The notes beneath the pieces were generated by a model that was not told the origin of the DNA, did not search any database, and saw nothing but the letters and a program-made list of their open reading frames with translations. Below are positions 3,999 to 17,156 of a DNA stretch of 32,000 nt, piece after piece (positions within the stretch are counted from its first letter, which is position 1; the number at the start of each line of letters is the position of its first letter). Origin of the DNA: Polyangiaceae bacterium. GTDB taxonomy: Bacteria > Myxococcota_A > Polyangia > Polyangiales > Polyangiaceae. A program made the position numbers and the translations under genes. The DNA lies in assembly GCA_050300635.1 (NCBI GenBank), contig JBNKYC010000014.1:194175-226174 (forward strand), in the 5' to 3' direction.

Positions 3999-4943
3999 TT
4001 AGCTCAGCAAATAGAACGGCACATCTCCGATGGCGATCTTACTTTGCGTGAGGCGGGAGGGATCGCGGCGGAGGAACTCAGGAACTTCGACGGTTCGCTC
4101 GAAGCTCAATCGACGAGGTAGCGATTCATAGAGCGACCTCGGCGGAGGGTCGTTCTGCATTTCTTTGAATCGCAGGCCGCTGGCGAATGTGTGCATGAAG
4201 ATCTTCTTCAATCCGATATCGCTACGAATGAACTGAATCGTCGCGGCGAGCATCGCTTCGGACCACATCCGTGCGTATGGCTGAAAGAGCTTGGCGTACC
4301 AAAGCAGGTGAGCCCGAGTTACGCCCTCGTGCACATGGCCTGAGCCAACCCAGAGCTTCCCGCTACGGCTTCGCCAGGGGTCCTCGGTCTCGACAGCCTC
4401 CCTCACCTCTTTCGCCCAGTCTGATTGGATCTCTTCGATCAGGGCTTCCCCGGTATCGAGGTCGAAATCGATTCGCGCCCAGGCCAGGGTGCTTCCCTCC
4501 CTAGAGTTGGGATGACAGGACCAAGTAAAGAGTGGTTCTTGGGGCCTAAGCAGTCTTCGATACTCGTGCAGGTGTTCCGCGCCGAGGTTCAGTTGGAGAA
4601 CCAGATTGTAGCCTTTTCGCGAGGTTTGCCCCCACGGCTCTCCAGAAGCGCCGCCGTTCCACGACGTCACGCGCAGGCGGAAGTACTTCGTGCCAGAGGG
4701 ACGAAGTAGCTCGAAGGCCGCTGGCCGCACGACCCCATCTGGGACGGTGCGGAGGAACTGGCGAACAGCCGGCGCCTGAAGCAAACGACCGGCACCAGCA
4801 GCGCGGAGCGCTGACACTTTCTGAGGCTCCTTGCCCACCACCTCTTTCAAACGATGGAGGGCAAACATCCCCGGTGCGTACGAAAACACGCGCTTCTCAT
4901 CTTTGAGGCACTCAAGCGCCTCCCTTATCTGCTGCTTGTCCAC
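3999..4943 (-). CDS. Hypothetical protein (314 aa), no family recognised
   Basis: Long ORF with plausible composition. It sits between xis and the SPFH gene. Confidence 0.5.
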   Translation of the reverse strand: MDKQQIREALECLKDEKRVFSYAPGMFALHRLKEVVGKEPQKVSALRAAGAGRLLQAPAVRQFLRTVPDGVVRPAAFELLRPSGTKYFRLRVTSWNGGASGEPWGQTSRKGYNLVLQLNLGAEHLHEYRRLLRPQEPLFTWSCHPNSREGSTLAWARIDFDLDTGEALIEEIQSDWAKEVREAVETEDPWRSRSGKLWVGSGHVHEGVTRAHLLWYAKLFQPYARMWSEAMLAATIQFIRSDIGLKKIFMHTFASGLRFKEMQNDPPPRSLYESLPRRLSFERTVEVPEFLRRDPSRLTQSKIAIGDVPFYLLS

Positions 4944-5007
4944 AAACGCCTCCCTGAGGCGAAGTGGGGCAGCGTCGCGTCACGAAGAACGATGACGCCG
5001 CCCCTTC

Positions 5008-6552: not shown

Positions 6553-6643
6553 GTTTGGGTAATTTCGCTACCTAAAAGCGTTGCCTTTCGGCACAAGGTT
6601 AAAAGCCTTGTTCTCATGTTCTGACCAACTGAACTACAGCCCC
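6553..6643 (-). pseudogene. Decayed tRNA-Lys(UUU)-like element
   Basis: On the minus strand the 5' half is canonical (GGGGCTG TA GTTC AGTTGGTCA GAAC). The anticodon arm is CAAGG-CTTTTAA-CCTTG. Six extra nt precede the anticodon stem, the T loop is GCGAAAT, and only 4 of 7 acceptor pairs form. Confidence 0.3.
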
Positions 6644-6646
6644 TAG

Positions 6647-6728
6647 TGGAACTGACCGGAATCGAACCGGTGACCGTGAGAGTCTGGTGGACGATACGTT
6701 CGCCTAACGGTGACCACACCATCGCTCC
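6647..6728 (-). other. tRNA-like element with a good T arm but no canonical anticodon arm
   Basis: The T arm is ACCGG-TTCGATT-CCGGT. The acceptor pairs at 5 of 7 positions (GGAGCGA/CAGTTCC). I could not fold the interior as a cloverleaf. Confidence 0.25.
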
Positions 6729-6799
6729 TCAGGACACGAACCACGGACACACAAGGGAGACTGCAAAGAGACCCAAGCGCGCGCCGTCGCACTGACTAA

Positions 6800-6878
6800 A
6801 GAGACGAGAGGGAGTCGAACCCTCTACCCGGAAAGCCCGCCCCAGTCCGATTTGCGGTCGGACCAAGGCGGGCTGGAC
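6800..6878 (-). other. tRNA-like element directly downstream of the HNH gene
   Basis: The T arm is GAGGG-TTCGACT-CCCTC. A long hairpin AGCCCGCC..GTCCGA-CCGCAAA-TCGGAC..GGCGGGCT carries a GCA-containing 7-nt loop. No partner for the acceptor 5' strand was found. Confidence 0.3.
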
Positions 6879-7397
6879 TCAGATCATTCCGTAGGCTTCC
6901 AAGTACGGAAGCCATTCTTCCGGGACGCGGCCGCGGCGCGCGTCGACCATCCCAATCGGGAGGGCCTTGGGCCGCACTGGCTCCATCAGCGGGAACATCC
7001 CCGCTTCGTCACAGCTCAGATTGGCCTTCTTGTTGTTGCAACGCTGACACGCAGCAACGATGTTCTCGAACGTTCGAGGCCCGCCGTGACTCCGAGGAAC
7101 CACATGGTCCATCGTGAGATCACTTCCGGGCAGATGAGCTCCGCAGTACTGGCAGCGGAACTTATCGCGGATCTTCACATTGTGGTCCGAGTACTTGATC
7201 CCCTTCTTGAAACGGGGAGTCATGTGCCGCAGGCGAATGACGGCAGGCACGTTCCAGGTCACGGACGGGGAAGAGACCGTCTCTGAATACTCAGCAATGA
7301 CATCGACCGTTTCCTCGTAGGTCATCTTGATTGCGGCCTGCCAAGGAACCACCTTTATCGGGAAGTACCAGGCCGTGAGGAGCAGTGAATTTCGCAT
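6879..7397 (-). CDS. HNH endonuclease (small McrA/COG1403-like)
   Basis: The motif reads CQYCG...LTMDHVVPRSHGGPRTFENIVAACQRCNNKKAN. The start is set at MRNSLLL, with AAGGAGG upstream. The track's longer N-terminus runs into a non-coding repeat. Confidence 0.8.
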   Translation of the reverse strand: MRNSLLLTAWYFPIKVVPWQAAIKMTYEETVDVIAEYSETVSSPSVTWNVPAVIRLRHMTPRFKKGIKYSDHNVKIRDKFRCQYCGAHLPGSDLTMDHVVPRSHGGPRTFENIVAACQRCNNKKANLSCDEAGMFPLMEPVRPKALPIGMVDARRGRVPEEWLPYLEAYGMI

Positions 7398-7432
7398 CAC
7401 GGCCTCCTTTCCTTTGTTGGTGCGATTGACTG

Positions 7433-7560
7433 TTTCTTTCAGGAGGGCAGAGGCCCTCCTCGTCGCGGGAAGTGAATCCCGGCTCCTCACCTCCACCCAA
7501 GCGACGTGCGCTCCGGCGCCTCCCACTTGGTCGGCGGCGGTACTCGCGCTCTCGTCCCGG
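7433..7560 (-). repeat. Copy 1 of a ~125-bp repeated non-coding element (leader-like, ends ~36 nt before the HNH start)
   Basis: About 88% identical to 8692-8818. Minus-strand hairpins GGAGGGC-CTCT-GCCCTCC and CGGGA-TTCACT-TCCCG are present. Confidence 0.7.
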
Positions 7561-7739
7561 CGCTACCGAGCCTCGTCCTGCCGGTCGCGGAAGACGGGCC
7601 CCGACGCTCCCCGGGCGGAAGGGCGCAGGAAACCACCGGCGACTAAGTAGGAGCCGCTGGATTTCCAGCGGAAGGTGGGGAGGAGAAGCGGAGATTCACT
7701 CTCCGCGACGGAGGGGACGCCGTCCCCTCAAAAAACGAG

Positions 7740-7813
7740 TAGAGCACATGGGAGTTGAACCCATCGCAGGTCCCTTATCAGGAGACCCAGATCAAACCGG
7801 ATCGTCGTGCTCA
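7740..7813 (-). tRNA. tRNA-Ile(GAU)
   Basis: Anticodon arm GTCTC-CTGATAA-GGGAC, T arm ATGGG-TTCAACT-CCCAT. The acceptor forms 6 bp with a U1-U72 mismatch. No CCA is encoded. Confidence 0.65.
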
Positions 7814-7814
7814 G

Positions 7815-7962
7815 TGCTGTCGGCGGGAGTCGTGGCCGAGCCCCGCTAGGGGCGAGCCCCACCGAGATAGTGCGATCGAAGAACGCACTATCGAAGGTCA
7901 CCCGCAATGCCGTGCGGCACGCCGTCTCAGGGCGCTGTGTATGCCTGTTCCACCACGACAGC
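7815..7962 (-). tRNA. tRNA-Leu(GAG)-like, abnormally long (148 nt)
   Basis: Perfect 7-bp acceptor GCTGTCG/CGACAGC with A73. Anticodon arm GCGCC-CTGAGAC-GGCGT and a type II variable arm CCGCA-CGGCAT-TGCGG. About 75 extra nt of hairpins precede the 3' strand, including the motif CTCGGCCACGACTCC. Confidence 0.45.
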
Positions 7963-7963
7963 G

Positions 7964-8081
7964 TGGTACACGCCCTCGGATTCGTGGCCGAGGACGTAGT
8001 CCGAGTCCCGCCGAGCGAAGCGACGGCCACCAGACTTCCCGGGCTTAAACCGGGCACCTCTACCGATTGGGTTAGGCGTGC
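7964..8081 (-). tRNA. tRNA-Leu(UAA), long (118 nt), CCA encoded
   Basis: Acceptor GCACGCC/GGCGTGT followed by ACCA. Anticodon arm CCCGG-TTTAAGC-CCGGG. The variable region is 45 nt and the T arm is CTCGG-CCACGAAT-CCGAG with an 8-nt loop. Confidence 0.55.
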
Positions 8082-8085
8082 CGAG

Positions 8086-8167
8086 CGGAAGGTAGAGAAA
8101 TCGAACCACGCACCTCTCGGTGCCCCTGGTTTTCAAAACCAGTTCGCCTCCATAGGCGGTACCTTCC
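8086..8167 (-). tRNA. tRNA-Ser(UGA)
   Basis: Perfect acceptor GGAAGGT/ACCTTCC with G73. Anticodon arm CTGGT-TTTGAAA-ACCAG and variable arm GCACC-GAGA-GGTGC. The T stem has two mismatches. Confidence 0.6.
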
Positions 8168-8169
8168 GG

Positions 8170-8241
8170 ATGAGGTGACAGGAATTGAACCCGCATCGCC
8201 GGGTTCAAAGCCCAGGGTCTTGACCGTTAGACGACACCTCA
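8170..8241 (-). tRNA. tRNA-Gln(UUG)
   Basis: Perfect acceptor TGAGGTG/CACCTCA, D arm GTCT-AACGGTCA-AGAC, anticodon arm CTGGG-CTTTGAA-CCCGG, T arm GCGGG-TTCAATT-CCTGT. Confidence 0.8.
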
Positions 8242-8394
8242 GAAGTTTTCTTCGCTGCGCAGGCAGCGACGCGCTCAGCACCGCCGACGAGCAAGCCCCA
8301 TTGCGAGTCGCCGGAGCGCCCGCGGAGTTGGGGGGAGGCTCACGCAGCGCTCTGCGCAGAGTGAGGGGGGCTGCATCAGCCCCCGATGAAACAG

Positions 8395-8463
8395 TCGCGA
8401 CGGAAGTATTCGAAACTTCATGCGAGCCCGTATGAAAGGCTGCTCCGACCCTCGGTCGCCGCG
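8395..8463 (-). tRNA. tRNA-Met(CAU), short (69 nt) with a reduced D arm
   Basis: Acceptor CGCGGCG/CGTCGCG, anticodon arm AGCCT-TTCATAC-GGGCT, T arm GAAGT-TTCGAAT-ACTTC. The D region is only CCGA-GGG-TCGG plus a 3-nt connector. A competing 10-bp hairpin lies at 8447-8477. Confidence 0.5.
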
Positions 8464-8540
8464 GTTGCGAGGGTCGGTAATGCTCCGATCTGATCTCCGG
8501 GCCATGAACCCGACGAGCCACTTTTGCTCCATCCTCGCGG

Positions 8541-8613
8541 CGTTTCGGCCAGGACTCGAACCTGAATTTCAGCCTTCGCAGGGCTGCGTCCTGTCCAGTT
8601 GGACGACCAGAAC
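8541..8613 (-). tRNA. tRNA-Arg(GCG)
   Basis: D arm GTCC-AACTGGACA-GGAC, anticodon arm CAGCC-CTGCGAA-GGCTG, T arm TCAGG-TTCGAGT-CCTGG. The acceptor has one mismatch. Confidence 0.75.
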
Positions 8614-8618
8614 AATCG

Positions 8619-8691
8619 CGTTCTCGGCAGGAGTCGAACCTGCACCCATCCGCTTAGAAGGCGGCTGCCCGTCCAATCGAGCCTCGAGAAC
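8619..8691 (-). tRNA. tRNA-Arg(UCU)
   Basis: Perfect acceptor GTTCTCG/CGAGAAC, anticodon loop CTTCTAA, T arm GCAGG-TTCGACT-CCTGC. Confidence 0.8.
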
Positions 8692-8818
8692 TTGTCTTTT
8701 CAGGAGGGCAGAGGCCCTCCTCGTCGTCGGGAGTGAATCCCGACTCCTCACCTCCACCCCTGCGACGTGCGCTCCGGCACCTCCCACTTGGTCGGTGGCG
8801 GTGCTGGCGCTCTCATCA
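8692..8818 (-). repeat. Copy 2 of the ~125-bp repeated element (its end abuts the 5' end of tRNA-Arg(UCU))
   Basis: It aligns with 7433-7560. The internal hairpin is TCGGGA-TTCAC-TCCCGA, with changes at the stem ends that extend the pairing relative to copy 1. Confidence 0.7.
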
Positions 8819-8932
8819 TCGCTTCGCGGTGCTTCGTCCTGGCGGGCGCCGGGCATAAGGGCAGGCCGCAGAACCCGTGAGGGTTCGAGGACCTCGACAA
8901 AAGTTACGGCACGCAGCACACCCGTGGAGGAG

Positions 8933-8983
8933 AGCCGAAGAGGTTTCGCCCTCACTTGTGATGGGGCGGAAACTCGTAGGCCT
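8933..8983 (-). repeat. Copy A of a ~50-nt conserved motif
   Basis: GCCGAAGAGGTTTCGCCCTCACTTGTGATGGGGCGGAAACTCGTAGGCC, compared with 10740-10789. Confidence 0.6.
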
Positions 8984-9058
8984 CCCCCACGGGCAAGCAG
9001 AGTGAAGCGCCATCGTGCACAGTTCGTCGATAAAGGCCGACGGACACGCTGCGCTCGG

Positions 9059-9126
9059 AGATCCGAGTGAGAGTCAAACTCACCCTCGCTGCTTTGCAAC
9101 CAGCGTCGTCCTCGGGACATCGGATC
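9059..9126 (-). tRNA. Short (68 nt) tRNA with a GCA-containing anticodon loop (Cys-like; identity ambiguous)
   Basis: Perfect acceptor GATCCGA/TCGGATC, D region GTCC-CGA-GGAC, anticodon stem CGCTG/CAGCG with the 9-nt loop GTTGCAAAG, a 3-nt variable region, and T arm GTGAG-TTTGACT-CTCAC. Confidence 0.45.
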
Positions 9127-9131
9127 ATTCG

Positions 9132-9203
9132 TACAAGTGGAGGGAATCGAACCCCCGTATCCTGGGTGGAAGCCAGGCATCTTGGCCGCTGGATCACACT
9201 TGC
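9132..9203 (-). tRNA. tRNA-Gly(UCC)
   Basis: Acceptor GCAAGTG/CACTTGT, anticodon arm CCTGG-CTTCCAC-CCAGG, T arm GGGGG-TTCGATT-CCCTC. Confidence 0.75.
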
Positions 9204-9204
9204 T

Positions 9205-9280
9205 TGGAGCCTCTATCGGGATTCAAACCCGAGTCTCTGCCTTACCGGGGCAGCGTTCTGCTCGACTGAACTATGGAGGC
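9205..9280 (-). tRNA. tRNA-Thr(GGU), CCA encoded, C at position 33
   Basis: D arm GTTC-AGTCGAGCA-GAAC, anticodon arm CTGCC-CCGGTAA-GGCAG, T arm TCGGG-TTTGAAT-CCCGA, 3' end TAGAGGC-T-CCA. Confidence 0.7.
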
Positions 9281-9284
9281 ACGG

Positions 9285-9351
9285 AGCCTTATCCCGGAAT
9301 CGAACCGAGTCAGATTGAGTACGAAACAATCCACTTTCCAAAAGCTAAGAC
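9285..9351 (-). tRNA. tRNA-Thr(CGU), short (67 nt) with a reduced D arm
   Basis: Anticodon arm ATTGT-TTCGTAC-TCAAT with a U-U closing pair, T arm CTCGG-TTCGATT-CCGGG, D region CTTT-TGG-AAAG plus TGG. The acceptor pairs at 6 of 7 positions. Confidence 0.5.
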
Positions 9352-9360
9352 AGCACTTTG

Positions 9361-9433
9361 TACACGCTCCCAGATTCGAACTGGGACCTCTCGGGTCTGA
9401 GCCGAGCGCCTCTGCCAGTTGGGCTAAGCGTGC
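9361..9433 (-). tRNA. tRNA with Leu anticodon CAG but a type I (4-nt variable loop) body
   Basis: It folds as GCACGCT TA GCCC AACTGGCAG AGGC G CTCGG-CTCAGAC-CCGAG AGGT CCCAG-TTCGAAT-CTGGG AGCGTGT A. The 5' half is a close paralogue of the Leu(UAA) gene. Confidence 0.65.
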
Positions 9434-9435
9434 AT

Positions 9436-9507
9436 TGGTGGAGCCGTCGGGAATCCAACCCGCAAGCTCTCTGTGCAAGAGAGAGCCGTAGCGCACTACA
9501 CAACCCC
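9436..9507 (-). tRNA. tRNA-Cys(GCA), compact, CCA encoded
   Basis: Anticodon arm CTCTC-TTGCACA-GAGAG. The acceptor GGGGTTG/CGGCTCC has three G-U pairs. D region GTAG-TGCG-CTAC, 3-nt variable region, T loop TTGGATT. Confidence 0.55.
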
Positions 9508-9512
9508 ATCAG

Positions 9513-9578
9513 CAGACCCACAAGGAATCGAACCCTGTCGACAACGGATTTGGAGTCCGTCCGGCGGCCGTCCGATCC
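9513..9578 (-). tRNA. tRNA-Trp(CCA)-like, very short (66 nt)
   Basis: Anticodon arm ACGGA-CTCCAAA-TCCGT and T arm CAGGG-TTCGATT-CCTTG. Only 11 nt lie between the acceptor and the anticodon stem. The acceptor is weak, with three G-U pairs and one mismatch. Confidence 0.4.
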
Positions 9579-9583
9579 CAATC

Positions 9584-9621
9584 GTGCAATGCGAAACGGA
9601 CGCGAGTCCGTGAAGCTGCAC
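9584..9621. repeat. Left copy of a ~38-nt inverted repeat pair (partner at 11308-11346)
   Basis: The reverse complement GTGCAGCTTCACGGACTCGCGTCCGTTTCGCATTGCAC aligns with GTGCAGCTTCACGGACTAGCGTCCGTTCCGCTTTGTCAC. The first 17 nt are identical. Confidence 0.75.
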
Positions 9622-9636
9622 ATGCGATACTACTGA

Positions 9637-9704
9637 CTAAATAAAGGCGCGTCGCGTGTCCTGCGGTAGCAGGCCCCTTTCAATCGCACCGATCCGCGAC
9701 GCGC
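9637..9704 (-). terminator. Terminator-like structure just after tRNA-His
   Basis: On the minus strand a 10-bp stem GCGCGTCGCG/CGCGACGCGC encloses a CCTGC-TACC-GCAGG hairpin and is followed by CTTTATTT. The 38-nt loop is atypical for a terminator. Confidence 0.35.
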
Positions 9705-9705
9705 G

Positions 9706-9773
9706 GGGTGTTGCTGAGGATCGAACTCAATAACCCGGGTCACAACCGAGTTTGCCCCCAGGGCGACAACACC
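9706..9773 (-). tRNA. tRNA-His(GUG), short (68 nt) with a reduced D arm
   Basis: Perfect acceptor GGTGTTG/CAACACC with C73. Anticodon arm CTCGG-TTGTGAC-CCGGG, T arm TTGAG-TTCGATC-CTCAG, D region GCCC-TGG-GGGC plus AAA, 3-nt variable region. No G-1 is encoded. Confidence 0.55.
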
Positions 9774-9774
9774 A

Positions 9775-9861
9775 TGGCGGAAGCTGGACGAGTCGAACGT
9801 CATTCCTTTCGGAACGCACCGATTAGCAGTCGGGCCAAGCGCCACCGCCTGTTCAGCTTCC
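9775..9861 (-). tRNA. tRNA-Ser(GCU), CCA encoded
   Basis: Perfect acceptor GGAAGCT/AGCTTCC followed by GCCA. Anticodon loop CTGCTAA, variable arm TTCC-GAAA-GGAA, T loop TTCGACT. Confidence 0.7.
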
Positions 9862-9865
9862 GTAG

Positions 9866-9937
9866 TCGGAGACCTGGGGGTCGAACCCAGCAGCACACGG
9901 TCCCAAGCCGCGCGGCACACCCCGTGCCTTGACTCCG
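9866..9937 (-). tRNA. tRNA-Pro(UGG)
   Basis: C1-G72 and A73. Anticodon arm CGCGG-CTTGGGA-CCGTG, T arm CTGGG-TTCGACC-CCCAG, compact D arm GGCAC-GGGGT-GTGCC. Confidence 0.7.
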
Positions 9938-9942
9938 AATAG

Positions 9943-10015
9943 TGGATCCCCTCAGTTTCGAACTGAGCTCTCCTGTTCTTCAGACAGGCGCTTTCACCAG
10001 ATTAGCTTGAGATCC
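9943..10015 (-). tRNA. tRNA-Phe(GAA)
   Basis: It folds as GGATCTC AA GCTA ATCTGGTGA AAGC G CCTGT-CTGAAGA-ACAGG AGAG CTCAG-TTCGAAA-CTGAG GGGATCC A. Confidence 0.8.
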
Positions 10016-10019
10016 GTAG

Positions 10020-10092
10020 TACTCGGGGCCGGGAACGATCCAGCAACCGTCTCCTTGTAAGGGAGCTGCGCTACCAATTGCGCCACCCGAGC
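10020..10092 (-). tRNA. tRNA-Val(UAC) with an unusual T loop
   Basis: D arm GCGC-AATTGGTA-GCGC, anticodon loop CTTACAA, T arm GCTGG-ATCGTTC-CCGGC (A54/U58 in place of U54/A58), acceptor GCTCGGG/CCCGAGT. Confidence 0.7.
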
Positions 10093-10093
10093 T

Positions 10094-10169
10094 TGGCGCT
10101 TCGTACGGGAATCGAACCCGTCTCCAAGTGATCGACAATCACCCTGCCTCCCCAGCGGCATCACGAAGC
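10094..10169 (-). tRNA. tRNA-Asp(GUC), CCA encoded
   Basis: Perfect acceptor GCTTCGT/ACGAAGC followed by GCCA. D arm TGCC-GCTGGGGA-GGCA, anticodon loop TTGTCGA, T arm ACGGG-TTCGATT-CCCGT. Confidence 0.85.
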
Positions 10170-10173
10170 ATTC

Positions 10174-10311
10174 ACGCGCCGTAGGGTCACAGACCCGAAG
10201 GCCCGTAAGAAACATGGCGCGTAGCAATTCTGCCCACCAGACCGGAGTGTTCCGTCCTCACCCTTCCGGGGGGCGGAACACGCAGGTCAATGTGTGGCAA
10301 GCAGAATGCAG
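10174..10311 (-). other. Two stem-closed structured elements between tRNA-Asp and tRNA-Glu (not foldable as tRNAs)
   Basis: At 10174-10222 the ends ACGCGCC/GGCGCGT pair around GGCC-TTCG-GGTC and GGGTC-TGT-GACCC hairpins. At 10223-10311 the ends GCATTCTGC/GCAGAATTGC pair around an 8-bp GTGTTCCG/CGGAACAC hairpin. Confidence 0.3.
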
Positions 10312-10383
10312 CACCCCCTGTCGGTATCGATCCGACTCTTTCAGGTTGAAAACCTGACGACCTAGCCAGTAGTCGAAGGGGGC
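10312..10383 (-). tRNA. tRNA-Glu(UUC) with an unusual T loop
   Basis: It folds as GCCCCCT TC GACT ACTGGCTA GGTC G TCAGG-TTTTCAA-CCTGA AAGA GTCGG-ATCGATA-CCGAC AGGGGGT G. Confidence 0.75.
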
Positions 10384-10392
10384 ATAGTTGAC

Positions 10393-10461
10393 TCGCGTGG
10401 CTACGCGACCCGCCTTCGGCGGGCTCGTCGACCTTCATGGACTCCGTCCACCAAGGTGGAC
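10393..10461. other. Cluster of three GC-rich hairpins, including a tandem GTGGACGGAGTCCAC motif
   Basis: The hairpins are TCGCGT-GGCT-ACGCGA, CCCGCC-TTC-GGCGGG and GTCCAC-CAAG-GTGGAC. The 13-mer GGACTCCGTCCAC occurs twice (10439-10451 and 10458-10470). Confidence 0.5.
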
Positions 10462-10475
10462 TCCGTCCACTACGG

Positions 10476-10556
10476 TTCCGGGGGCAGGAATCGTGGCCGA
10501 GCGAAGCGAGCCCCGCCGAGCGGAGCGAAGGCCACCCGCACACGTCGGGCCCCAGG
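10476..10556 (-). other. tRNA-like element sharing the CTCGGCCACGATTCC motif of the long Leu genes
   Basis: Ends CCTGGGG/CCCCGGA pair at 6 of 7 positions, with a C1-A72 mismatch. It has a CCCG-ACGTGTG-CGGG hairpin and a GCGGG/CCTGC stem around an internal GTGGCC...GGCCAC hairpin. No D arm is present. Confidence 0.25.
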
Positions 10557-10562
10557 AGCTTG

Positions 10563-10634
10563 CTTCGGGGATAGGACTCGAACCTATATGAACTCGCTTA
10601 ACAGGCGAGTGCCTTACCAATCGGCCACCCCGAA
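10563..10634 (-). tRNA. tRNA-Asn(GUU)
   Basis: Perfect acceptor TTCGGGG/CCCCGAA with G73. Anticodon arm CTCGC-CTGTTAA-GCGAG, T arm ATAGG-TTCGAGT-CCTAT. Confidence 0.85.
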
Positions 10635-10739
10635 TCATCGCCACACCCTCCTCGGCTAATTGACTTCCAAGCGGCCGCAGGACCTTCGGGTCCGAGGACC
10701 AAAAGAAACAGTTGGCGGGAAGCACACTCAATCAAGAAG

Positions 10740-10789
10740 GCCGAAGAGTACCGCCCTCACTCTGTGATGGGGCGAGACTCGTAGGCCCG
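10740..10789 (-). repeat. Copy B of the ~50-nt conserved motif
   Basis: GCCGAAGAGTACCGCCCTCACTCTGTGATGGGGCGAGACTCGTAGGCC, compared with 8933-8983. Confidence 0.6.
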
Positions 10790-10891
10790 GATGTGGCGAG
10801 CAAAAAATTGCTGAGTATTCAGTTGTCACGGATCAGGAGGAGCGAATGCTCCTGTGACTTGCGAAACGAAGCGTTTCACCTCGTTTCGCAG

Positions 10892-10963
10892 TGGATCTGG
10901 AGGGACTCGAACCCTCGTCCAACCGGGTAAGAACCGGCGACTCTGCCGCTGAGTTACAGATCC
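10892..10963 (-). tRNA. tRNA-Lys(CUU)
   Basis: Perfect acceptor GGATCTG/CAGATCC, D arm ACTC-AGCGGCA-GAGT, anticodon arm GCCGG-TTCTTAC-CCGGT, T arm GAGGG-TTCGAGT-CCCTC. Confidence 0.85.
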
Positions 10964-10967
10964 AAGG

Positions 10968-11005
10968 CCCGGATGAGGTGCCTCCTTGTGTTCACCTCAT
11001 CCGGG
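10968..11005. other. 13-bp perfect hairpin between the two Lys tRNA genes
   Basis: CCCGGATGAGGTG-12 nt-CACCTCATCCGGG. Confidence 0.7.
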
Positions 11006-11036
11006 GAAACGACACTGGATGTGCCGTGGAATTGAG

Positions 11037-11109
11037 TGGGACCAGGGGGCTTCGAACCCCCACCCCCTCGATTAAAAGTCGAGTGCGCTACCAGTTACGC
11101 CACAGTCCC
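11037..11109 (-). tRNA. tRNA-Lys(UUU)
   Basis: It folds as GGGACTG TG GCGT AACTGGTA GCGC A CTCGA-CTTTTAA-TCGAG GGGGT GGGGG-TTCGAAG-CCCCC TGGTCCC A. Confidence 0.85.
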
Positions 11110-11196
11110 AAGTCCAAGCTTGTGACTGCGTTTCTTCATTCGATACATAGTTCTCTCCTGTTCGCGCTCGAGATCGAGCGCGCAATTCACCCTTCG

Positions 11197-11279
11197 TGGA
11201 GCCCCCGAGATTCGAACTCGGCAAGCGCGCTGCGCAGCGGGGTTACAATCCGCTTGAGGTCCCGAGCCTCATGAGCTCC
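11197..11279 (-). tRNA. tRNA-Tyr(GUA), type II
   Basis: Acceptor GGAGCTC/GGGCTCC with A73. D arm GAGG-CTCGGGA-CCTC, anticodon loop TTGTAAC, variable arm GCGC-AGC-GCGC, T arm CCGAG-TTCGAAT-CTCGG. Confidence 0.75.
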
Positions 11280-11754: not shown

Positions 11755-13338
11755 TTAGGATATGTCATCCCAGGACAGAGAGTATCGGTTCAAGTACTTC
11801 CGCACCCGGTCTGCGTCATTGACCGACGAACGCCTCTTTCGGGATTCGGCGAATAGAGTGCGGCCTGCCTCCGAAAGAGAGTTTGAGTCCACGCACACCC
11901 GCAGAACCTCGGCCAGCTGAACCCGGTCAAACAGATCAAGGTCGGCGATGACATCGGCTCCGAGGAACCGCGAGAGGATATCGTCCCCCTCCTCACCGCC
12001 TGGCCGCTCCCACGACTCTTTCAGGCGTTCGATCTCTTCCTTGACACCAGCCGCTGTGATCCTGCCCCCCTCTGCGAGGGTCGCCATGCGCTCAAAAGCG
12101 GCACTGTAGTCGCGAAAGTTGCCAGACCAGCTAGTGGACGGCGCCTTGGCAAAATCGAGAAATAGCTTACGGGCCTCACGGTTCATGGTGACGCGTTCGC
12201 CGTGCGTTTCTGCCCATCGCTCAGTTTCGTATTCGAGGTTGGGCTCCATATCCTCGGGCCTATCCCTCAGAGCGGGGAGATGGAACGCCCACAGATTGAT
12301 GCGAGCGAGAAGGTCATCGCGAAAAGTCCCCTGAGCCACAGAGCCGCGCAGATCGCGGTTGGTCCCGCTGATCAGCTGGAAGTCGCTCTCCGCCTCTCGA
12401 TCGGCGCCAACAGGAAGGAACCTCTTCTCCTCGATGGCGCGAAGGAGCATGGCCTGCTCCTCAAGTCCGAGCTCGCCAATTTCATCGAGAAAGAGGATGC
12501 CGCCGTTGGCCTCACGGAGGAGACCCTCACGTGGGCCTGACGCGCCAGTGAACGCGCCCTTCTTATGCCCAAAGAGGGCACTCATGGCGCCGTCGCCTCG
12601 GATAGTGGCACAGTTCACCTCGACAAAGGGCCCGGAAACCTGGCCGCGCAGCTTCTTTAGCTCATAGACCCGTCGCGCCAAATGGCTCTTGCCAGCGCCG
12701 GTCGGACCCATCAAGAGCAGGGGGGACTTCGATGCAATGGCGACCTGCTCGATGCGGTCGATTTGCTTGTTGAACGCCTTGTTCTTTGTAGCGATTCCTG
12801 ACTTGAGGAAGTCCCGGCTCTCCCGCTGCTCGAGTTTGAACCGAGACGCGAGCTTGTCGTACTTGGACAGGTCAAGATCGATGACGCTATAGGAGCCAAC
12901 ATTCCCCTTTTGCCGGGATGGACTCGTCTGAAGCAGCTGACCTGGGATGTGGCGAGACTCCGTCAGCAAGAACTGGCAAATCTGAGCTACGTGCGTCCCG
13001 GTCGTGATGTGGACAAGGTACCTTTCCTTGCTCTGCTTGAACGAGTACTTGGAGGCAAAGTCGTGGAGCGCTGCATAGACCTCCTCAAAGTCCCAGGGGT
13101 CGGTGGTCTCAAGGTGATGCGGACACACCTGGGTTTCGGGCGAGACGGAACGAATATCCTTTGTGATCTGCTCAGCCAGCTTCTCGAACTTCGACTGGTA
13201 CAGAAGCTCGAACCGGTCGACGACCAAGTCCTCGTGCCGACACACGTCAACGGTCGGACGCCACTGAAGCCAACGGTCGCCCCGCTTCTTCATGGCATCC
13301 AGAGTCACGCCCAACATCCCGATGACGACAGTTTTCAT
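11755..13338 (-). CDS. rtcR: Sigma54-dependent transcriptional activator RtcR (CARF-like N-domain, AAA+ domain, C-terminal DNA-binding region)
   Basis: Walker A LLMGPTGAGKSHLA and the GAFTGA motif (HKKGAFTGA). The N-terminal ~185 aa resemble the RtcR sensor domain. The gene is divergent from rtcBA. Confidence 0.85.
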   Translation of the reverse strand: MKTVVIGMLGVTLDAMKKRGDRWLQWRPTVDVCRHEDLVVDRFELLYQSKFEKLAEQITKDIRSVSPETQVCPHHLETTDPWDFEEVYAALHDFASKYSFKQSKERYLVHITTGTHVAQICQFLLTESRHIPGQLLQTSPSRQKGNVGSYSVIDLDLSKYDKLASRFKLEQRESRDFLKSGIATKNKAFNKQIDRIEQVAIASKSPLLLMGPTGAGKSHLARRVYELKKLRGQVSGPFVEVNCATIRGDGAMSALFGHKKGAFTGASGPREGLLREANGGILFLDEIGELGLEEQAMLLRAIEEKRFLPVGADREAESDFQLISGTNRDLRGSVAQGTFRDDLLARINLWAFHLPALRDRPEDMEPNLEYETERWAETHGERVTMNREARKLFLDFAKAPSTSWSGNFRDYSAAFERMATLAEGGRITAAGVKEEIERLKESWERPGGEEGDDILSRFLGADVIADLDLFDRVQLAEVLRVCVDSNSLSEAGRTLFAESRKRRSSVNDADRVRKYLNRYSLSWDDIS

Positions 13339-13339
13339 G

Positions 13340-13355
13340 TTATCCGTGAGGATAT
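13340..13355. promoter_or_regulatory. Dyad related to 11728-11743, candidate UAS
   Basis: TTATCC-GTGA-GGATAT, centred about 105 bp upstream of the rtcB -24 element. It directly abuts the rtcR start codon. Confidence 0.45.
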
Positions 13356-13450
13356 GCTCTTATCTCCTTGAATCCAGGCACGAAGACCCCAATCAGAGTT
13401 CTCTGCATTATTTCAGCGATTTGCGCGCGAGTCGGTCGAGGCGCTGAACT

Positions 13451-13466
13451 TGGCACAACGTCTGCA
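13451..13466 (+). promoter_or_regulatory. Sigma54 (-24/-12) promoter of the rtcBA operon
   Basis: TGGCAC-AACGT-CTGCA in the rtcR-rtcB intergenic region, oriented toward rtcB. Confidence 0.7.
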
Positions 13467-13609
13467 AAGTCTCGGTCACGCTTCTGAAGCTCAACGCGGC
13501 AGAGCACCGGAAAAACACAGGACAAGCCGGGCCTCGAAGGAGGCATGTGGAACCCAGGCGACTGGGGAGCGGCAACGGTTAACAGATTGCACCGAACAGG
13601 GTCCGAGAG

Positions 13610-13685
13610 GGTTCTGAAGGGAAGCAGGTTCCCGAAAGGCCGCCTCATCCACGTGGAGTGGGTTCGATCCCCACCAGAAGCACCA
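13610..13685 (+). ncRNA. tRNA-like element in the rtcB 5' leader (ends in ACCA; no anticodon stem)
   Basis: It folds as GGTTCTG AA GGGA-AGCAGGT-TCCC ... GTGGG-TTCGATC-CCCAC CAGAAGC A CCA. The 24 nt in the anticodon position (GAAAGGCCGCCTCATCCACGTGGA) form no 5-bp stem. A perfect alternative 5' strand GCTTCTG lies at 13483-13489 near the predicted TSS. Confidence 0.5.
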
Positions 13686-13723
13686 GCCATCAAGTTGATT
13701 GTCACTTAGACTGGAGAGAAGAA

Positions 13724-14947
13724 ATGAGTACCTACGAACTGCGCGAACCTCACGGCGGCGTTCCGATCAAGACCTGGACCAAGGGCGTGCCCGTGGAACC
13801 AGAGGCTGTTGATCAGCTCACCAACATCGCGCGCCTGCCCATCGTCCACAAGTGGGTCGCGGCCATGCCGGACGTTCACCTGGGGATCGGTGCGACCGTA
13901 GGCAGCGTTATCCCCACCGTGGGAGCGGTGATTCCTGCAGCAGTCGGCGTGGATATCGGCTGCGGAATGATGGCCGTGGAAACCACGCTGAAGGCCAGCG
14001 ATCTTCCAGATAACCTCGGCCCCATGCGAAGCACCATCGAACGAGCAGTCCCCCATGGGCGCGGACGGTCCGGGCGTCGCGGGGACAAAGGTTCTTGGAG
14101 CGACGTTCCGAACCGCGTCGGAAAGGTCTGGAAAGGGCTAGAATCTGGCTTCAAAGCCATCGTCGACAAGCATCCAGGCGTCGAGAAGAGCAACAATGTC
14201 GTTCATCTCGGGACGCTCGGAACCGGAAACCACTTCATCGAGGTTTGCCTCGATGAAAAGGACAACGTCTGGTTCATGCTGCACAGTGGCTCACGCGGAG
14301 TAGGAAACCGCATCGGTTCGCACTTCATCGCCCTGGCGAAGAAGGACATGCAGCGTCATCAACAGCATCTGCCCGACGCCAACCTTTCCTACTTTGAGGA
14401 AGGGAGCGAACACTTCCACGACTACGTGGAAGCCGTCGAGTGGGCGCAGAGCTTCGCGCGTCATAACCGAGAACTCATGATGCACGCTGTACTCGATTCG
14501 GTTCGCCGGTTGCCCAAGTTTCCGTCTTTCCAAACGGCAAAGAGCGCCGTCAACTGCCACCACAACTACGTTTCACGCGAGTTCCACTACGGAAAGAACG
14601 TGTTCGTGACCCGCAAGGGAGCTGTGCATGCAGGTGAAGGCGTCCTGGGCATCATCCCCGGAAGCATGGGAGCTCGCTCCTACATTGTCCGGGGAAAGGG
14701 AAACCCAGAAAGCTTCTGTAGCTGTAGTCACGGAGCGGGGCGCGTGATGTCCCGTACCAAGGCAAAGAAGAAGTTCTCCTTGGAGGACCATCGCCGAGCG
14801 ACTGAAGGCGTCGAATGCCGCAAGGACAAGGACGTCATCGACGAAACGCCTGGTGCCTACAAGGACATCGACAAGGTGATGGAGGCCCAGAGTGATCTGG
14901 TCGAAATCCTCCACACGCTCAAGCAGGTGGTCTGCGTGAAGGGGTGA
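13724..14947 (+). CDS. rtcB: RNA-splicing ligase RtcB (3'-phosphate/5'-hydroxyl RNA ligase)
   Basis: Typical RtcB sequence blocks (IARLPIVHKWVAAMPDVHLGIGATVGSV, GTLGTGNHFIEV, HSGSRGVGN, NCHHNY, SCSHGAGR). The start is set at MSTYELREP with GGAGAG upstream. The track's 13658 start overlaps the tRNA-like element. Confidence 0.92.
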   Translation: MSTYELREPHGGVPIKTWTKGVPVEPEAVDQLTNIARLPIVHKWVAAMPDVHLGIGATVGSVIPTVGAVIPAAVGVDIGCGMMAVETTLKASDLPDNLGPMRSTIERAVPHGRGRSGRRGDKGSWSDVPNRVGKVWKGLESGFKAIVDKHPGVEKSNNVVHLGTLGTGNHFIEVCLDEKDNVWFMLHSGSRGVGNRIGSHFIALAKKDMQRHQQHLPDANLSYFEEGSEHFHDYVEAVEWAQSFARHNRELMMHAVLDSVRRLPKFPSFQTAKSAVNCHHNYVSREFHYGKNVFVTRKGAVHAGEGVLGIIPGSMGARSYIVRGKGNPESFCSCSHGAGRVMSRTKAKKKFSLEDHRRATEGVECRKDKDVIDETPGAYKDIDKVMEAQSDLVEILHTLKQVVCVKG

Positions 14948-14999: not shown

Positions 15000-16028
15000 A
15001 TGCTTACTATCAACGGATCTATGGGAGAGGGCGGTGGCCAGGTCCTGCGTTCATCGCTTGCCCTCTCGGCTGTGACCGGGACTCCGTTTCGCATCGAAGG
15101 GATCCGTGCGAAGCGCAGTCGCCCCGGTCTGCTTCGGCAGCATCTAACCGCTGTTCGGGCTATGGCTGAGGTTTGTTCGGCGCGCGTCTCTGGGGCCGAA
15201 TTGGGCTCGCGAGAGCTTACCTTCGAACCTGGTGTCACCAAGCACGGACACTACGAGTTCGCCGTCGGTACTGCCGGTAGCGCCACGCTCGTCTTTCAGA
15301 CGGTGCTCCCAGCACTGCTCACTACCGCTGGCGAATCTCGACTTGTCTTCGAAGGGGGAACGCACAACGCGTGGGCTCCACCTGTCGACTTCATCCAACA
15401 CACCTTCCTTCCGCTGCTTCATCGCATGGGAGCGACTGTTCAGATCGAATTGGAGCGCCACGGGTTCTACCCGGCTGGTGGCGGGCGCTTCGCAGTACGC
15501 ATCGCCGGCGGCTCACCTCTTTCGGGACTCGAACTTTCAGAGCGCGGGGATATCGAAAGCGTGCTGCTTGACGCATTGGTCAGTCAGATCCCCGAGCATG
15601 TCGCGGAGCGCGAGGTGCGCACGTTGGCTCGTCAACTCGCCGATCTACCCGTCGGCGTCGAGACCCATGCCGTGAACAGCCCAGGCCCAGGAAATGTCGC
15701 GATGGTGAGAGTGCGCTCAGCGCACCTGACTGAGGTGTTCACCTCCTTCGGAGAACGCGGGGAGAAGGCGGAGACGATTGCTCACCGCCTCGTTGGAGAT
15801 GTGCGCAAGTACGTCGCCTCAGAAGTCCCGGTCGGAGAACACCTCGCGGATCAGCTTCTGATCCCACTGGCTCTCGCGGGAGAGGGTGCCTTTGTGACGG
15901 GCGAGCCAAGTCTGCACACAACGACTAACCTCGAGGTGATTGGGATGTTCTTGCCCGGACGGCTCACGCTTGAACGCGGCTCCGCCGGCGCGCGCATTAT
16001 CGCGAAAGGGGGGCGTCATGAGGGCTGA
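15000..16028 (+). CDS. rtcA: RNA 3'-terminal phosphate cyclase RtcA
   Basis: GEGGGQVLRSSLALSAVTGTPFRIEGIRAKRSRPGLLRQHL is typical of RtcA. The gene lies immediately downstream of rtcB. Confidence 0.9.
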   Translation: MLTINGSMGEGGGQVLRSSLALSAVTGTPFRIEGIRAKRSRPGLLRQHLTAVRAMAEVCSARVSGAELGSRELTFEPGVTKHGHYEFAVGTAGSATLVFQTVLPALLTTAGESRLVFEGGTHNAWAPPVDFIQHTFLPLLHRMGATVQIELERHGFYPAGGGRFAVRIAGGSPLSGLELSERGDIESVLLDALVSQIPEHVAEREVRTLARQLADLPVGVETHAVNSPGPGNVAMVRVRSAHLTEVFTSFGERGEKAETIAHRLVGDVRKYVASEVPVGEHLADQLLIPLALAGEGAFVTGEPSLHTTTNLEVIGMFLPGRLTLERGSAGARIIAKGGRHEG

Positions 16029-16070: not shown

Positions 16071-17156
16071 CTATCCGCAGAGAAGCGAACGCTTCGCTCG
16101 GAACATGGAGGATTGGCCGAGCCGAGCACGCAGAAGGTGCGACGGAAAGAGACGTGAATGCTCAAGAAGCCCCAACGGGCCCTTGAGCCACAGCAGAAAC
16201 AATCGAAGCCGCTTTTGCTTCCGAGTTCTCGCCAACACCACATGGAAGTGAGGCCAGCTCCGACGACGGAGGGTGGCCCCGTTGTAGATAAGTGAGTAGC
16301 AGCTGGGATCGCCGTAGCGTTCCCGCGCCAGCTCCCGAGCTTCGCGGTGCGCGGCGAAAAAGAACTCCTCCTCGTCCTCGGTTCCACCTGTCAGTCTTCC
16401 TTGCGAGATCACGAAATACTCCGTGAGACCCGGCACCTTCTTTTGGATTACTTCCAGCGTCCCTGGGCGTCCTTTCTTGAGGTTCTCCAGTTCCCACTCC
16501 ATGTTCTCGCGCGCCTGTGCCGCGAAAGCGCCCTCGAACAGAGGGTTCGCGTAGAGACTCTTCCTGCGCAGCATTCCCCGAAGGAACCGCCTTCGCCCCC
16601 AGCGATACTCCCAGTTCGCGTATGGGGAATGCTCCTCTCGCACCTGCCGCGCGTATTCCCGGTACCGCTCGGCGGGGCTACCCAGAATCCAGAGATCGGC
16701 GTCGCACATGATGGTGGAGAGCTGCACTCCTCGAGCGTCGTGGTCCTTCGTCTCAAGGATGAGCGAGATGACCCCCTCGATGACTTCTCTCTTTAGCCCG
16801 CCCTCTCTCGCGAGGCTTTGAAACAGTTCAGCACTCCGGTGCTCGTTGTCCTGGGCTCCGGGGTCGTAGACCACGTCGTGAAACCACAAGGCCAGCTCCA
16901 GCTCCCCCGGCACTTCGCCCCAACCCACGATTGCGGCGTATTGCTCCACGATCTGAAGGCACTCCTCGATATGCTGGAGGTTGTGAAAGTGCCGATGTGA
17001 CTGTGAGTAGGCTGACTTCAGGACGCGAAAGACGGCCTGGGCGTTCGGGTCGTTCCCCCATGCGTTCACGAACCTCCGCCCTAACTCAGCCTCGCCGCTA
17101 AGTACCGGTGCGTGAAAGCCCCTTCCGTAGCGCCTCTCGATTTCCTTCGTTTTCAT
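16071..17156 (-). CDS. HD-superfamily phosphohydrolase (COG4339-like) with a ~130-aa C-terminal extension
   Basis: The N-terminal ~225 aa carry RHFHNLQHIEEC...LALWFHDVVYDP...NEHRSAE. The extension contains IYNGATLRRRSWPHFHVVL, a possible degenerate HIT-like motif. Paralogue of 20076-20786. Confidence 0.7.
   Translation of the reverse strand: MKTKEIERRYGRGFHAPVLSGEAELGRRFVNAWGNDPNAQAVFRVLKSAYSQSHRHFHNLQHIEECLQIVEQYAAIVGWGEVPGELELALWFHDVVYDPGAQDNEHRSAELFQSLAREGGLKREVIEGVISLILETKDHDARGVQLSTIMCDADLWILGSPAERYREYARQVREEHSPYANWEYRWGRRRFLRGMLRRKSLYANPLFEGAFAAQARENMEWELENLKKGRPGTLEVIQKKVPGLTEYFVISQGRLTGGTEDEEEFFFAAHREARELARERYGDPSCYSLIYNGATLRRRSWPHFHVVLARTRKQKRLRLFLLWLKGPLGLLEHSRLFPSHLLRARLGQSSMFRAKRSLLCG

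Follow-up and report, generated by a model that had tools for sequence, protein, structure and literature searches.

The rtcR-rtcB intergenic region

In the stretch of Polyangiaceae bacterium DNA analysed here (the window, 32,000 nucleotides (nt) of contig JBNKYC010000014.1, assembly GCA_050300635.1), the divergent genes rtcR and rtcB are separated by a gap of 385 nt that holds a 206-nt RNA element built on the frame of a transfer RNA (tRNA) and placed as the leader of the rtcBA message. The RtcB protein of the window finds its best genome matches in Polyangiaceae, and the window itself matches contig JBNKXD010000018.1 of GCA_050300095.1, a metagenome bin of Polyangiaceae type. The region is organised as follows.

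11755..13338, minus strand: rtcR, divergent to rtcB, encoding a sigma54 activator with an RtcR/CARF N-terminal domain (Pfam RtcR 1.7e-81, Sigma54_activat 1.1e-48)
13341..13354 (also 13359-13364): inverted repeat TATCC-N4-GGATA at the rtcR start codon, read from the sequence
13451..13466, plus strand: sigma54 promoter TGGCAC-N5-CTGCA (TGGCAC 13451-56, CTGCA 13462-66; GG 13452-53, GC 13464-65)
13480..13685, plus strand: whole tRNA-like leader RNA, 206 nt (homologs in loci L173, L183, L169 and L184; consensus fold; 222.6 bits with covariance model R1, see below)
13686..13723, plus strand: spacer of 38 nt with the ribosome-binding site GGAGAGA (13713-19) and no terminator
13724..14947, plus strand: rtcB, RNA ligase gene (Pfam RtcB 2e-130)
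15000..16028, plus strand: rtcA, RNA 3'-phosphate cyclase gene (Pfam RTC 3.8e-78)

Comparison with homologous loci shows that a conserved, covarying, tRNA-framed RNA forms the predicted 5' end of the RtcR-dependent rtcBA transcript. The sigma54-type promoter is present 5' of the element, as the original prediction for this DNA had placed it, and its TGGCA and TGC do not vary across five aligned loci. Transcription from this promoter is predicted to start at about 13477, with the first base of the leader RNA about 3 nt past that point in the window; the distance from the -12 element to the start of the RNA is 13-17 nt in every locus that has the RNA. Neither a sigma70-like promoter nor an intrinsic terminator was found in 13300-13800, and rtcB must therefore be transcribed through the leader element. 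The RNA ends in ACCA, 38 nt before the rtcB ATG, and the CCA-to-ATG distance in the homologs is 26-39 nt. Motifs resembling TATCC..GGATA occur at the same place in seven other loci (L163, L166, L169, L173, L175, L083 and L084), and the repeat of the window probably serves RtcR as its binding site (upstream activating site).

Architecture of the leader RNA

RtcB homologs 79-93% identical to that of the window were traced to their contigs (loci numbered with L), and the full-length set of leader RNAs consists of five distinct sequences, from the window, L173, L183, L169 and L184; RtcB in the four homolog loci is 83-86% identical to that of the window. The parts of the window RNA, all on the plus strand, are listed below.

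13480..13486: acceptor 5' strand GCUUCUG, pairing with 13675-13681 (7/7 pairs in 5/5 sequences)
13489..13505: D arm GCUC-AACGCGGCA-GAGC, with A14, G18, G19 and A21; stem invariant in the five full-length sequences
13507..13530: anticodon-like hairpin, CCGG, 16-nt loop starting AAAAACA, CCGG; 4-bp stem invariant in five sequences
13532..13543: GNRA hairpin CCUC-GAAG-GAGG; stem covarying from U-A to C-G, loop GAAA in homologs
13544..13551: long-range helix, 5' strand CAUGUGGA, pairing with 13648-13655
13552..13647: inner domain, with a variable hairpin (13553-13567), GCGGC (13569-73) paired with GCCGC (13639-43), and hairpins 13597-13616 and 13619-13633
13597..13616: hairpin CAGGGUCC-GAGA-GGGUUCUG; homolog tetraloops GAGA, GCGA and GCAA; its 3' strand is the acceptor 5' strand of the original prediction
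13619..13633: hairpin GGGA-AGCAGGU-UCCC, a simple hairpin in the minimum-energy fold, with only one-sided changes
13648..13655: long-range helix, 3' strand UCCACGUG, ending 2 nt before the T arm
13658..13674: T arm GUGGG-UUCGAUC-CCCAC, with G53, U54, U55, C56, G57 (R57), A58 and C61; one compensatory change, U-A to C-G
13675..13685: acceptor 3' strand CAGAAGC, discriminator A (13682) and CCA (13683-85)

The minimum-energy fold of the 206 nt in the window reproduces the consensus (z score -2.67, with 1/200 shuffles folding as well), and the helices of the RNAalifold consensus are the acceptor, the D arm, the CCGG hairpin with a 13-16-nt loop, the GNRA hairpin, the 8-bp long-range helix and the T arm. 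The bases that make up the tRNA elbow (A14, G18, G19, A21, G53, U54, U55, C56, R57, A58 and C61) are present and U8 is absent, positions 8-9 being AA instead of UA, with A at position 8 in every homolog. The 5' part of the anticodon-like loop is conserved, and in the diverged RNA of L168 the hairpin reads CCGC...GCGG, a compensatory change. The place of the variable loop (13532-13655 in the window) is filled by extra structure of about 145 nt, which is closed by the 8-bp helix and contains two GNRA hairpins; from the anticodon-like hairpin to the T arm the distance is about 124-156 nt.

The inner domain is drawn from the minimum-energy and consensus folds and shows few compensatory changes; because nearly all of them separate the window from the rest, its model is provisional. 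The RNAalifold consensus pairs part of the 13619-13633 hairpin elsewhere, and the stem of the 13597-13616 hairpin is rich in G.U pairs, so an alternative pairing of its strand with 13675-81 is possible. A 10-nt direct repeat, G[C/G]TTCTGAAG, begins both acceptor-like strands (13480-13489 and 13610-13619) and may have come from an internal duplication or belong to a switch.

Conservation, covariation and selection

The RNA measures 238 nt in L173, 235 nt in L183 and about 304 nt in L169 and L184. The homologous RNAs share the 5' consensus GCYYCUG-AA-GCUC-AACNNGGCA-GAGC-A-CCGG-AAAAACA and the 3' consensus GYGGG-UUCGAUC-CCCRY-CAGRRGY-N-CCA, and NCCA is retained in 5/5 full-length homologs, against 3/20 genes with an encoded CCA in the nearby tRNA array. 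All cells (100%) pair over the five sequences in the helices of the frame, namely acceptor, D arm, long helix and T arm; seven pairs show two-sided changes, and none of 500 shuffles reaches this combination of frame pairing and covariation. Of the two-sided changes, two are independent compensatory events in the acceptor helix, from U-A to C-G at pair 3 and at pair 4, and four belong to the long-range helix, which has three different fully paired versions among the homologs.

The leader RNA of the window is 70% identical to those of L173 and L183 (a 32-nt indel included), and over nt 1-38 its identity to the distant homologs is 92-97%. In these comparisons the four-fold degenerate sites of rtcB are essentially saturated (35-43% the same between the window and L173, L183 or L169), and the spacers from rtcR to the promoter and from CCA to ATG retain 49-56% identity. 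Between L169 and L184 the RNA is 96% identical and the four-fold sites 64%. By this comparison of sequences the leader RNA is far more conserved than the synonymous sites of rtcB and is under purifying selection. No conserved open reading frame (ORF) was found in the leader on either strand. A minus-strand ORF (13340-13705) was considered as the cause of the conservation and discarded: L173 does not retain it, and the lengths of the indels are not divisible by three. The remnant of an integration site at a tRNA 3' end was likewise set aside, there being no second copy of the T arm and acceptor in the window and the 5' strand covarying with the 3' strand.

L169 and L184 carry a 67-nt insertion in the T loop, between UU and CGAUC (L169 3464-3530), in which two hairpins are predicted. 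It is identical in the two loci though their four-fold sites differ as given above, and possible readings of it are a small mobile insertion and a functional extension.

The 76-nt element at 13610-13685

The original prediction had described a tRNA-like unit of 76 nt at 13610-13685, in the leader of rtcB. Its motifs are all there: GGGA-AGCAGGT-TCCC at 13619-33, GTGGG-TTCGATC-CCCAC at 13658-74, A-CCA at 13682-85, and a proximal acceptor stem of 6/7 pairs between GGTTCTG (13610-16) and CAGAAGC (13675-81), with a G.G mismatch at the second pair. The unit and its boundaries are not correct, however, since this stretch is only the 3' part of the 206-nt RNA. What was taken for its D arm (13619-33) is a plain hairpin of the inner domain in the minimum-energy fold of the window, and the 24 nt at the anticodon-arm position, which had been noted as unable to form a 5-bp stem, include the 3' strand of the long-range 8-bp helix. 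The distal GCTTCTG, reported at 13483-89, actually lies at 13480-13486; it does pair perfectly with the 3' acceptor strand as stated, yet as the real 5' acceptor strand rather than an alternative partner, for it covaries in two independent events and is followed by the canonical D arm.

Taken alone, the 76-nt stretch has a minimum-energy fold that is not a cloverleaf and an ordinary energy (z score -0.50, 60/200 shuffles folding as well). None of the 20 tRNAs that ARAGORN calls in the window lies at 13610-13685, and the Rfam models for tRNA, YrlA, transfer-messenger RNA (tmRNA) and T-box, proposed as a check of this element, give no match to it at E<=10. The homologous 76-nt stretches of L173 and L183 reach 21.7 and 22.0 bits with the Rfam tRNA model, against a gathering score of 29. 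In the five sequences the G.G mismatch of the 76-nt model is conserved, 92.5% of its cells pair, and outside the T arm that both models share none of its pairs changes on both sides. The conservation expected of orthologous leaders is found for the 206-nt RNA, and the 76-nt fold is not the unit that is conserved. The broader idea, a cis-encoded tRNA mimic in the rtcB leader, held up: the RNA between the sigma54 promoter and rtcB is conserved, covarying and under purifying selection.

Resemblance to tRNA

A covariance model (R1) based on the five leader RNAs alone recovers them at 222-284 bits; shortened or diverged relatives score 35 bits (L175), 31 bits (L166) and 26 bits (L168). Dozens of genuine tRNA genes are likewise matched from one end to the other by R1, which then skips the centre; they include one in L018 (33.6 bits), a tRNA-Lys in L166 (26 bits) and the tRNA-Thr of the window (24.5 bits). 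Under this model the D arm of the leader aligns to the D arms of genuine tRNAs. The frame is closest to tRNA-Lys(CUU) of the array type, with which it shares GAGCGGCAGAG-N-ACCGG; Phe, Thr and Asp tRNAs score almost as high, and this likeness is only suggestive of a derivation of the frame from tRNA-Lys.

Genuine tRNAs share with the leader RNA the acceptor stem, D arm, T arm, discriminator and CCA, and class II tRNAs also have extra material at the position of the variable arm. The leader RNA differs in its 4-bp anticodon stem (5 bp in tRNAs), in a loop of 13-16 nt without U33 (7 nt with U33 in tRNAs), in the A at position 8 and in a variable region of about 124-156 nt (4-21 nt in tRNAs), and neither ARAGORN nor the Rfam tRNA model calls it; it is not a genuine tRNA. 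A tRNA with an intron was rejected because ARAGORN makes intron calls only at the 80% threshold and the 'introns' differ among homologs, and a tRNA split by a group I intron because no intron model matches and the mini form of L166 has no anticodon arm.

The ends of tmRNA likewise come together in a tRNA-like domain with T arm and ACCA, and a long helix beside the T arm closes a large internal domain. In contrast to tmRNA, the leader RNA has a true D stem, no conserved tag frame and no G3.U70 pair (pair 3:70 is U-A or C-G). ARAGORN in its tmRNA mode (-m) finds nothing at the 80% threshold, Rfam gives no tmRNA match, and a UAA in the inner domain of the window is not conserved. A T-box was also dismissed (no match at E<=10, no terminator-like site in 13300-13800).

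Comparison with RtcB-linked tRNA-like RNAs

RtcB/RtcA repair operons are widespread. In Salmonella, tRNA-like Y RNAs are co-transcribed with rtcBA (PMC4201824), and YrlA shares the RtcR/sigma54 promoter with rtcBA (PMC4201824, PMC7790460). YrlA (Rfam RF02553; Salmonella rsr-yrlBA-rtcBA) resembles the leader RNA in being non-coding, in its D arm, T arm and acceptor-like stem, and in its place immediately 5' of rtcB. It differs in being circularly permuted (T arm, closed acceptor stem-loop, D arm), in its Ro-binding stem and in the lack of a free CCA, whereas the leader RNA is unpermuted (acceptor 5' strand, D arm, T arm, acceptor 3' strand, free CCA), ends in a free NCCA, has no Ro-binding motif (no GCGAAUG...ACUACA stem in 13470-13723), contains the large extra structure and has no rsr gene in the window. 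No TROVE/vWA_Ro60 (rsr) gene lies within 10 kb in the source contig.

The kinship with Salmonella-type Y RNAs suggested earlier did not survive these comparisons. The YrlA model detects its controls (L022, 74.1 bits; L035, 69.8 bits) and has no match in the window leader; the leader of L183 reaches 16.5 bits against a gathering score of 69. True YrlAs stand 5' of rtcB in seven loci with rsr (L011, L022, L033, L035, L052, L055 and L068). The inner domain was also tried as a YrlA-like permuted module, its order of branches being similar, and not supported, the first hairpin having no T-loop sequence and the YrlA model giving no match. Among the full-length homolog loci only L183 has rsr (Ro60), and ahead of that gene stands a short sequence resembling a Y RNA, GGCGAAUGCC...ACUACA...UUGGUCGCC (1237-1400), with the tRNA-like rtcB leader at 4727-4961; since L183 carries both, a Y RNA and a tRNA-like rtcB leader are not mutually exclusive.

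Burroughs and Aravind are said to have predicted in 2016 a Band-7-associated tRNA-like RNA, b7a-tRNA, in RtcB systems with SPFH/Band-7 and RlaP proteins, and we know of no validation of it. A tRNA-like RNA of this name is predicted next to RtcB as far as the description goes in bioRxiv 10.1101/312249. By that description, b7a-tRNA systems are like the window, where RtcB, Band_7 and RlaP genes are all present, and b7a-tRNA is unpermuted like the leader RNA. Single or paired tRNA-like genes of 72-77 nt were found 230-470 nt upstream of Band_7 in 12 loci (L003, L016, L039, L062, L067, L071, L072, L075, L076, L085, L141 and L154); many have non-standard anticodon loops (ARAGORN 'tRNA-???'), several encode CCA and others do not. 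Going by the same description, they are probably the predicted b7a-tRNA of Burroughs and Aravind 2016. The leader RNA, with 206-304 nt, forms the leader of rtcB. In the window Band_7 is 7.3 kb away from it, and the fetched flanks of L173, L183 and L169 showed no Band_7 gene. With b7a-tRNA known here by its description, from which the leader RNA is set apart on that footing, the leader RNA looks like a previously undescribed third kind of RtcB-linked tRNA mimic. What is new is an unpermuted, CCA-ended mimic with large extra structure at the variable position, which would stand at the 5' end of a message switched on by RtcR, itself switched on by 5' tRNA halves.

Distribution and deletion derivatives

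Shortened forms of the RNA accompany the closest relatives of the window RtcB. In L163 (RtcB 93% identical) only a degenerate T hairpin and the 3' strand are left; L166 (91%) has a 65-nt mini form made of acceptor, D arm, a 9-nt linker and T arm (nt 1-35 plus the T arm), with no anticodon arm and no match to the Rfam tRNA model; L175-178 (90%) hold only nt 1-40, beside a shortened rtcR; and L168 (88%) has a diverged form of 171 nt that keeps the closing helix and the CCGC...GCGG hairpin. The 5' part is the piece that is kept best. In L175-L178, about 230-530 nt upstream of rtcB, rtcR appears reduced to its start and a short diverged remnant, and the sigma54 promoter and an intact rtcB are kept; an RtcB identical to theirs occurs on nine contigs. 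The ancestor of this RtcB clade probably had the leader RNA, to judge by these derivatives, with repeated losses since.

No further full-length homolog was found in 80 genome and 80 metagenome RtcB loci, a pattern scan of viral contigs gave 0 matches and a plasmid BLAST 0 matches. A distant candidate lies in L138 (3722-3954), a 233-nt RNA between a Band_7 gene and an rtcB of betaproteobacterial type, and this is the only tRNA-like leader adjacent to Band_7. Its tRNA-like ends read GGGCACG...GCGGG-UUCGAAU-CCCGC-CGUGUCC-ACCA, the T arm being canonical, and its centre is large and structured. The minimum-energy fold, with an AAAAAUG loop and a long helix, follows the architecture of the window RNA; R1 scores the L138 RNA at 22.8 bits, and no Rfam family matches it. 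The related L072 has Band_7 and then rtcB without the RNA. GTTCTGAAGG is also found directly upstream of the L138 RNA. As sampled, the family is small, a few myxobacterial metagenome bins and one possible betaproteobacterial case.

Possible roles of the leader RNA

By a small balance of probability we favour the reading that the first 206 nt of the RtcR/sigma54-dependent rtcBA transcript are a large co-transcribed tRNA mimic in the RtcR/RtcB tRNA-damage response. The comparative fold brings the acceptor strand and D arm of the 5' end together with the T arm, acceptor strand and ACCA of the 3' end, in a tRNA-like acceptor/T minihelix with an elbow between the D and T loops. By analogy with the YrlA of M. 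smegmatis, whose 7-bp acceptor stem goes with a cut by RNase P and the addition of CCA (PMC4201824), enzymes of tRNA processing may recognise the leader RNA, RNase P trimming the 5' leader of about 3 nt at 13480, and a 3' cut after CCA would free it from the rtcBA message. The freed RNA might then serve as a tRNA surrogate in the damage response sensed by RtcR and repaired by RtcB, as proposed for YrlA and b7a-tRNA.

How the RNA would act in that response can be put more specifically, and with less confidence. The CARF domain of RtcR binds 5' tRNA halves with a terminal cyclic phosphate (PMC7790460), and it is conceivable, if rather unlikely, that the leader RNA is a bait for tRNA-cleaving nucleases, cut in the exposed AAAAACA loop with release of nt 1 to about 38 as a ligand of RtcR. 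With its 2',3'-cyclic phosphate end the released piece would resemble a 5' tRNA half of the kind that is the known RtcR ligand, and so induction would reinforce itself. The link to RtcR comes from one observation, the likeness of nt 1-38, where conservation is strongest, to a 5' tRNA half: these bases comprise the acceptor strand, the D arm, a strand of the anticodon stem and the first part of the loop. A version that we regard as doubtful, with the operon carrying a damage sentinel of its own, adds that the decoy is derived from tRNA-Lys and cut by nucleases of the anticodon type, that the cyclic-phosphate piece of about 38 nt is a built-in ligand of the RtcR CARF domain in a feed-forward loop, and that re-ligation by RtcB could stop the signal. 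The RNA could equally be a decoy or cofactor for RtcB, by analogy with the proposals made for YrlA and b7a-tRNA. If the sentinel reading were true, the RNA would represent a new class of large tRNA mimics that unite sensing, regulation and repair in one transcript.

Several observations weigh against a tRNA mimic in the damage response. Position 8 is A and not the near-universal U, which speaks against a strict tRNA fold, and the T-loop insertion of L169 and L184 is not expected if the D/T elbow is essential. The sample comprises five full-length sequences only, from two or three lineages, and the covariation of the inner domain is mostly 'window versus the rest'. The four closest RtcB relatives (88-93%) each have a different deletion derivative (L163, L166, L175 and L168), and the RNA is absent from L179, L180 and L084, with only a trace in L083; because it is so often lost or shortened, it is dispensable in many lineages. 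For the bait version in particular, the form reduced to the 5' half (L175) sits beside a shortened rtcR.

One alternative is a purely cis-acting mRNA leader, whose 5' helix and compact fold would shield the rtcBA message against 5'-end-dependent decay or govern its translation, the resemblance to tRNA being only inherited from an ancestral tRNA gene. It would suit an acceptor helix that in all loci starts 1-6 nt from the predicted 5' end, the classic position of a stabilising stem, as well as the missing terminator, the 26-39 nt left between CCA and ATG, the tolerance of the T-loop insertion and the 5' stem-forming piece still held by the shortened forms. A stabiliser needs the stem alone, yet the GG of the D loop, the UUCGAUC of the T loop, the discriminator and CCA are all kept, the strongest constraint falls on nt 1-38 with single-stranded loop bases included, and the region of the spacer and ribosome-binding site has no conserved pairing to the RNA; we hold this explanation to be unlikely. 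It is improbable that the 76-nt element is an alternative conformer of a switch, with 13610-16 competing with 13480-86 for the 3' acceptor strand. The proximal strand does pair 6/7 in all five sequences, because its U tolerates the A-to-G changes in the 3' strand, positions 8-9 of the proximal version are the canonical UA in 4/5 homologs, the strands GCYYCUG, CAGGGUY, GGUUCUG and CAGRRGY can pair in two registers, and the tRNA-model scores of L173 and L183 (21.7 and 22.0 bits) point the same way. But the conformer would have to break or cross the long-range 8-bp helix, the one best supported by covariation, it keeps the G.G mismatch without two-sided changes outside the shared T arm, no Rfam or ARAGORN call is made in the window, where the fold energy is ordinary, and the relaxed ARAGORN calls vary from homolog to homolog.

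A functionless, decaying relic of a tRNA gene, perhaps a tRNA-Lys-like one from the neighbouring array, disrupted by insertions, would agree with the patchy distribution and the many independent deletions among close relatives, with the foreign 67-nt insertion in the T loop of L169 and L184, with the likeness of the frame to array-type tRNA-Lys(CUU) and with a genomic island that has an integrase and a 20-tRNA array. We consider it highly improbable: across lineages with saturated synonymous sites the RNA is much more conserved than neutral sites, at least four helices are kept intact by compensatory changes, the loops of two hairpins vary within GNRA, and CCA is retained. The least probable of the explanations considered is a diverged member of one of the named families of RtcB-linked tRNA mimics, the YrlA Y RNA or b7a-tRNA. 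The theme of a tRNA-like RNA just 5' of rtcB is the same, a Band_7 protein is encoded in the window, and in L138 an RNA of the same architecture lies directly between Band_7 and rtcB. For YrlA, what stands in the way is the failure of its model in the window and its low score in L183 (16.5 bits against 69), the arm order D then T instead of the permuted T, closed acceptor, D, the lack of a GNCGAA Ro-binding stem and of rsr in the window, and the separate YrlA-like RNA that the window has beside Band_7; for b7a-tRNA, it is the 72-77 nt and the place upstream of Band_7 of the genes that fit its description, which R1 scores at 18.9 and 11.9 bits, no better than ordinary tRNAs.

Genomic neighbourhood

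The island around rtcBA contains an integrase, a Band_7/SPFH gene, an HNH endonuclease, two RlaP nucleotidyltransferase genes and an array of 20 tRNA genes.

5008-6123: Band_7 gene, 7.3 kb from the leader RNA
6590-6740, minus strand (core 6612-6679): YrlA-like permuted tRNA module between the HNH and Band_7 genes
6808-6824, minus strand: second T-arm-like hairpin, GAGGG-UUCGACU-CCCUC
6879-7526: HNH endonuclease gene, adjoining the tRNA array
7739-11279, minus strand: tRNA array of 20 genes (ARAGORN)

Only 12/20 tRNAs of the array reach the Rfam tRNA gathering score, CCA is encoded in only 3/20, and several have unusual acceptor ends. Comparable arrays occur in L022, L049, L056, L062, L075, L139, L141 and L166, and the neighbourhood of a tRNA array, HNH and rtcR/rtcBA is the 'L-array' setting (PMC8421152). 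With the 20-tRNA array, HNH, Band_7, the two RlaP genes and the YrlA-like RNA, supply, mimicry and repair of tRNA may travel as one mobile module against ribotoxins.

In the module at 6612-6679 the T arm (ACCGG-UUCGAUU-CCGGU) is followed by a closed acceptor stem-loop, by UA and then by the D arm (GUUC-AGUUGGUCA-GAAC). A GGCGAACG motif stands directly 5' of the module, which scores 32.6 bits with the Rfam YrlA model (E 4e-5), below the gathering score of 69. Two ORFs of the island have no Pfam match, one of 314 aa (3999-4943, minus strand) and one of 361 aa (16071-17156, minus strand); the latter, 3' of rtcA, is also found in contigs identical to the window.

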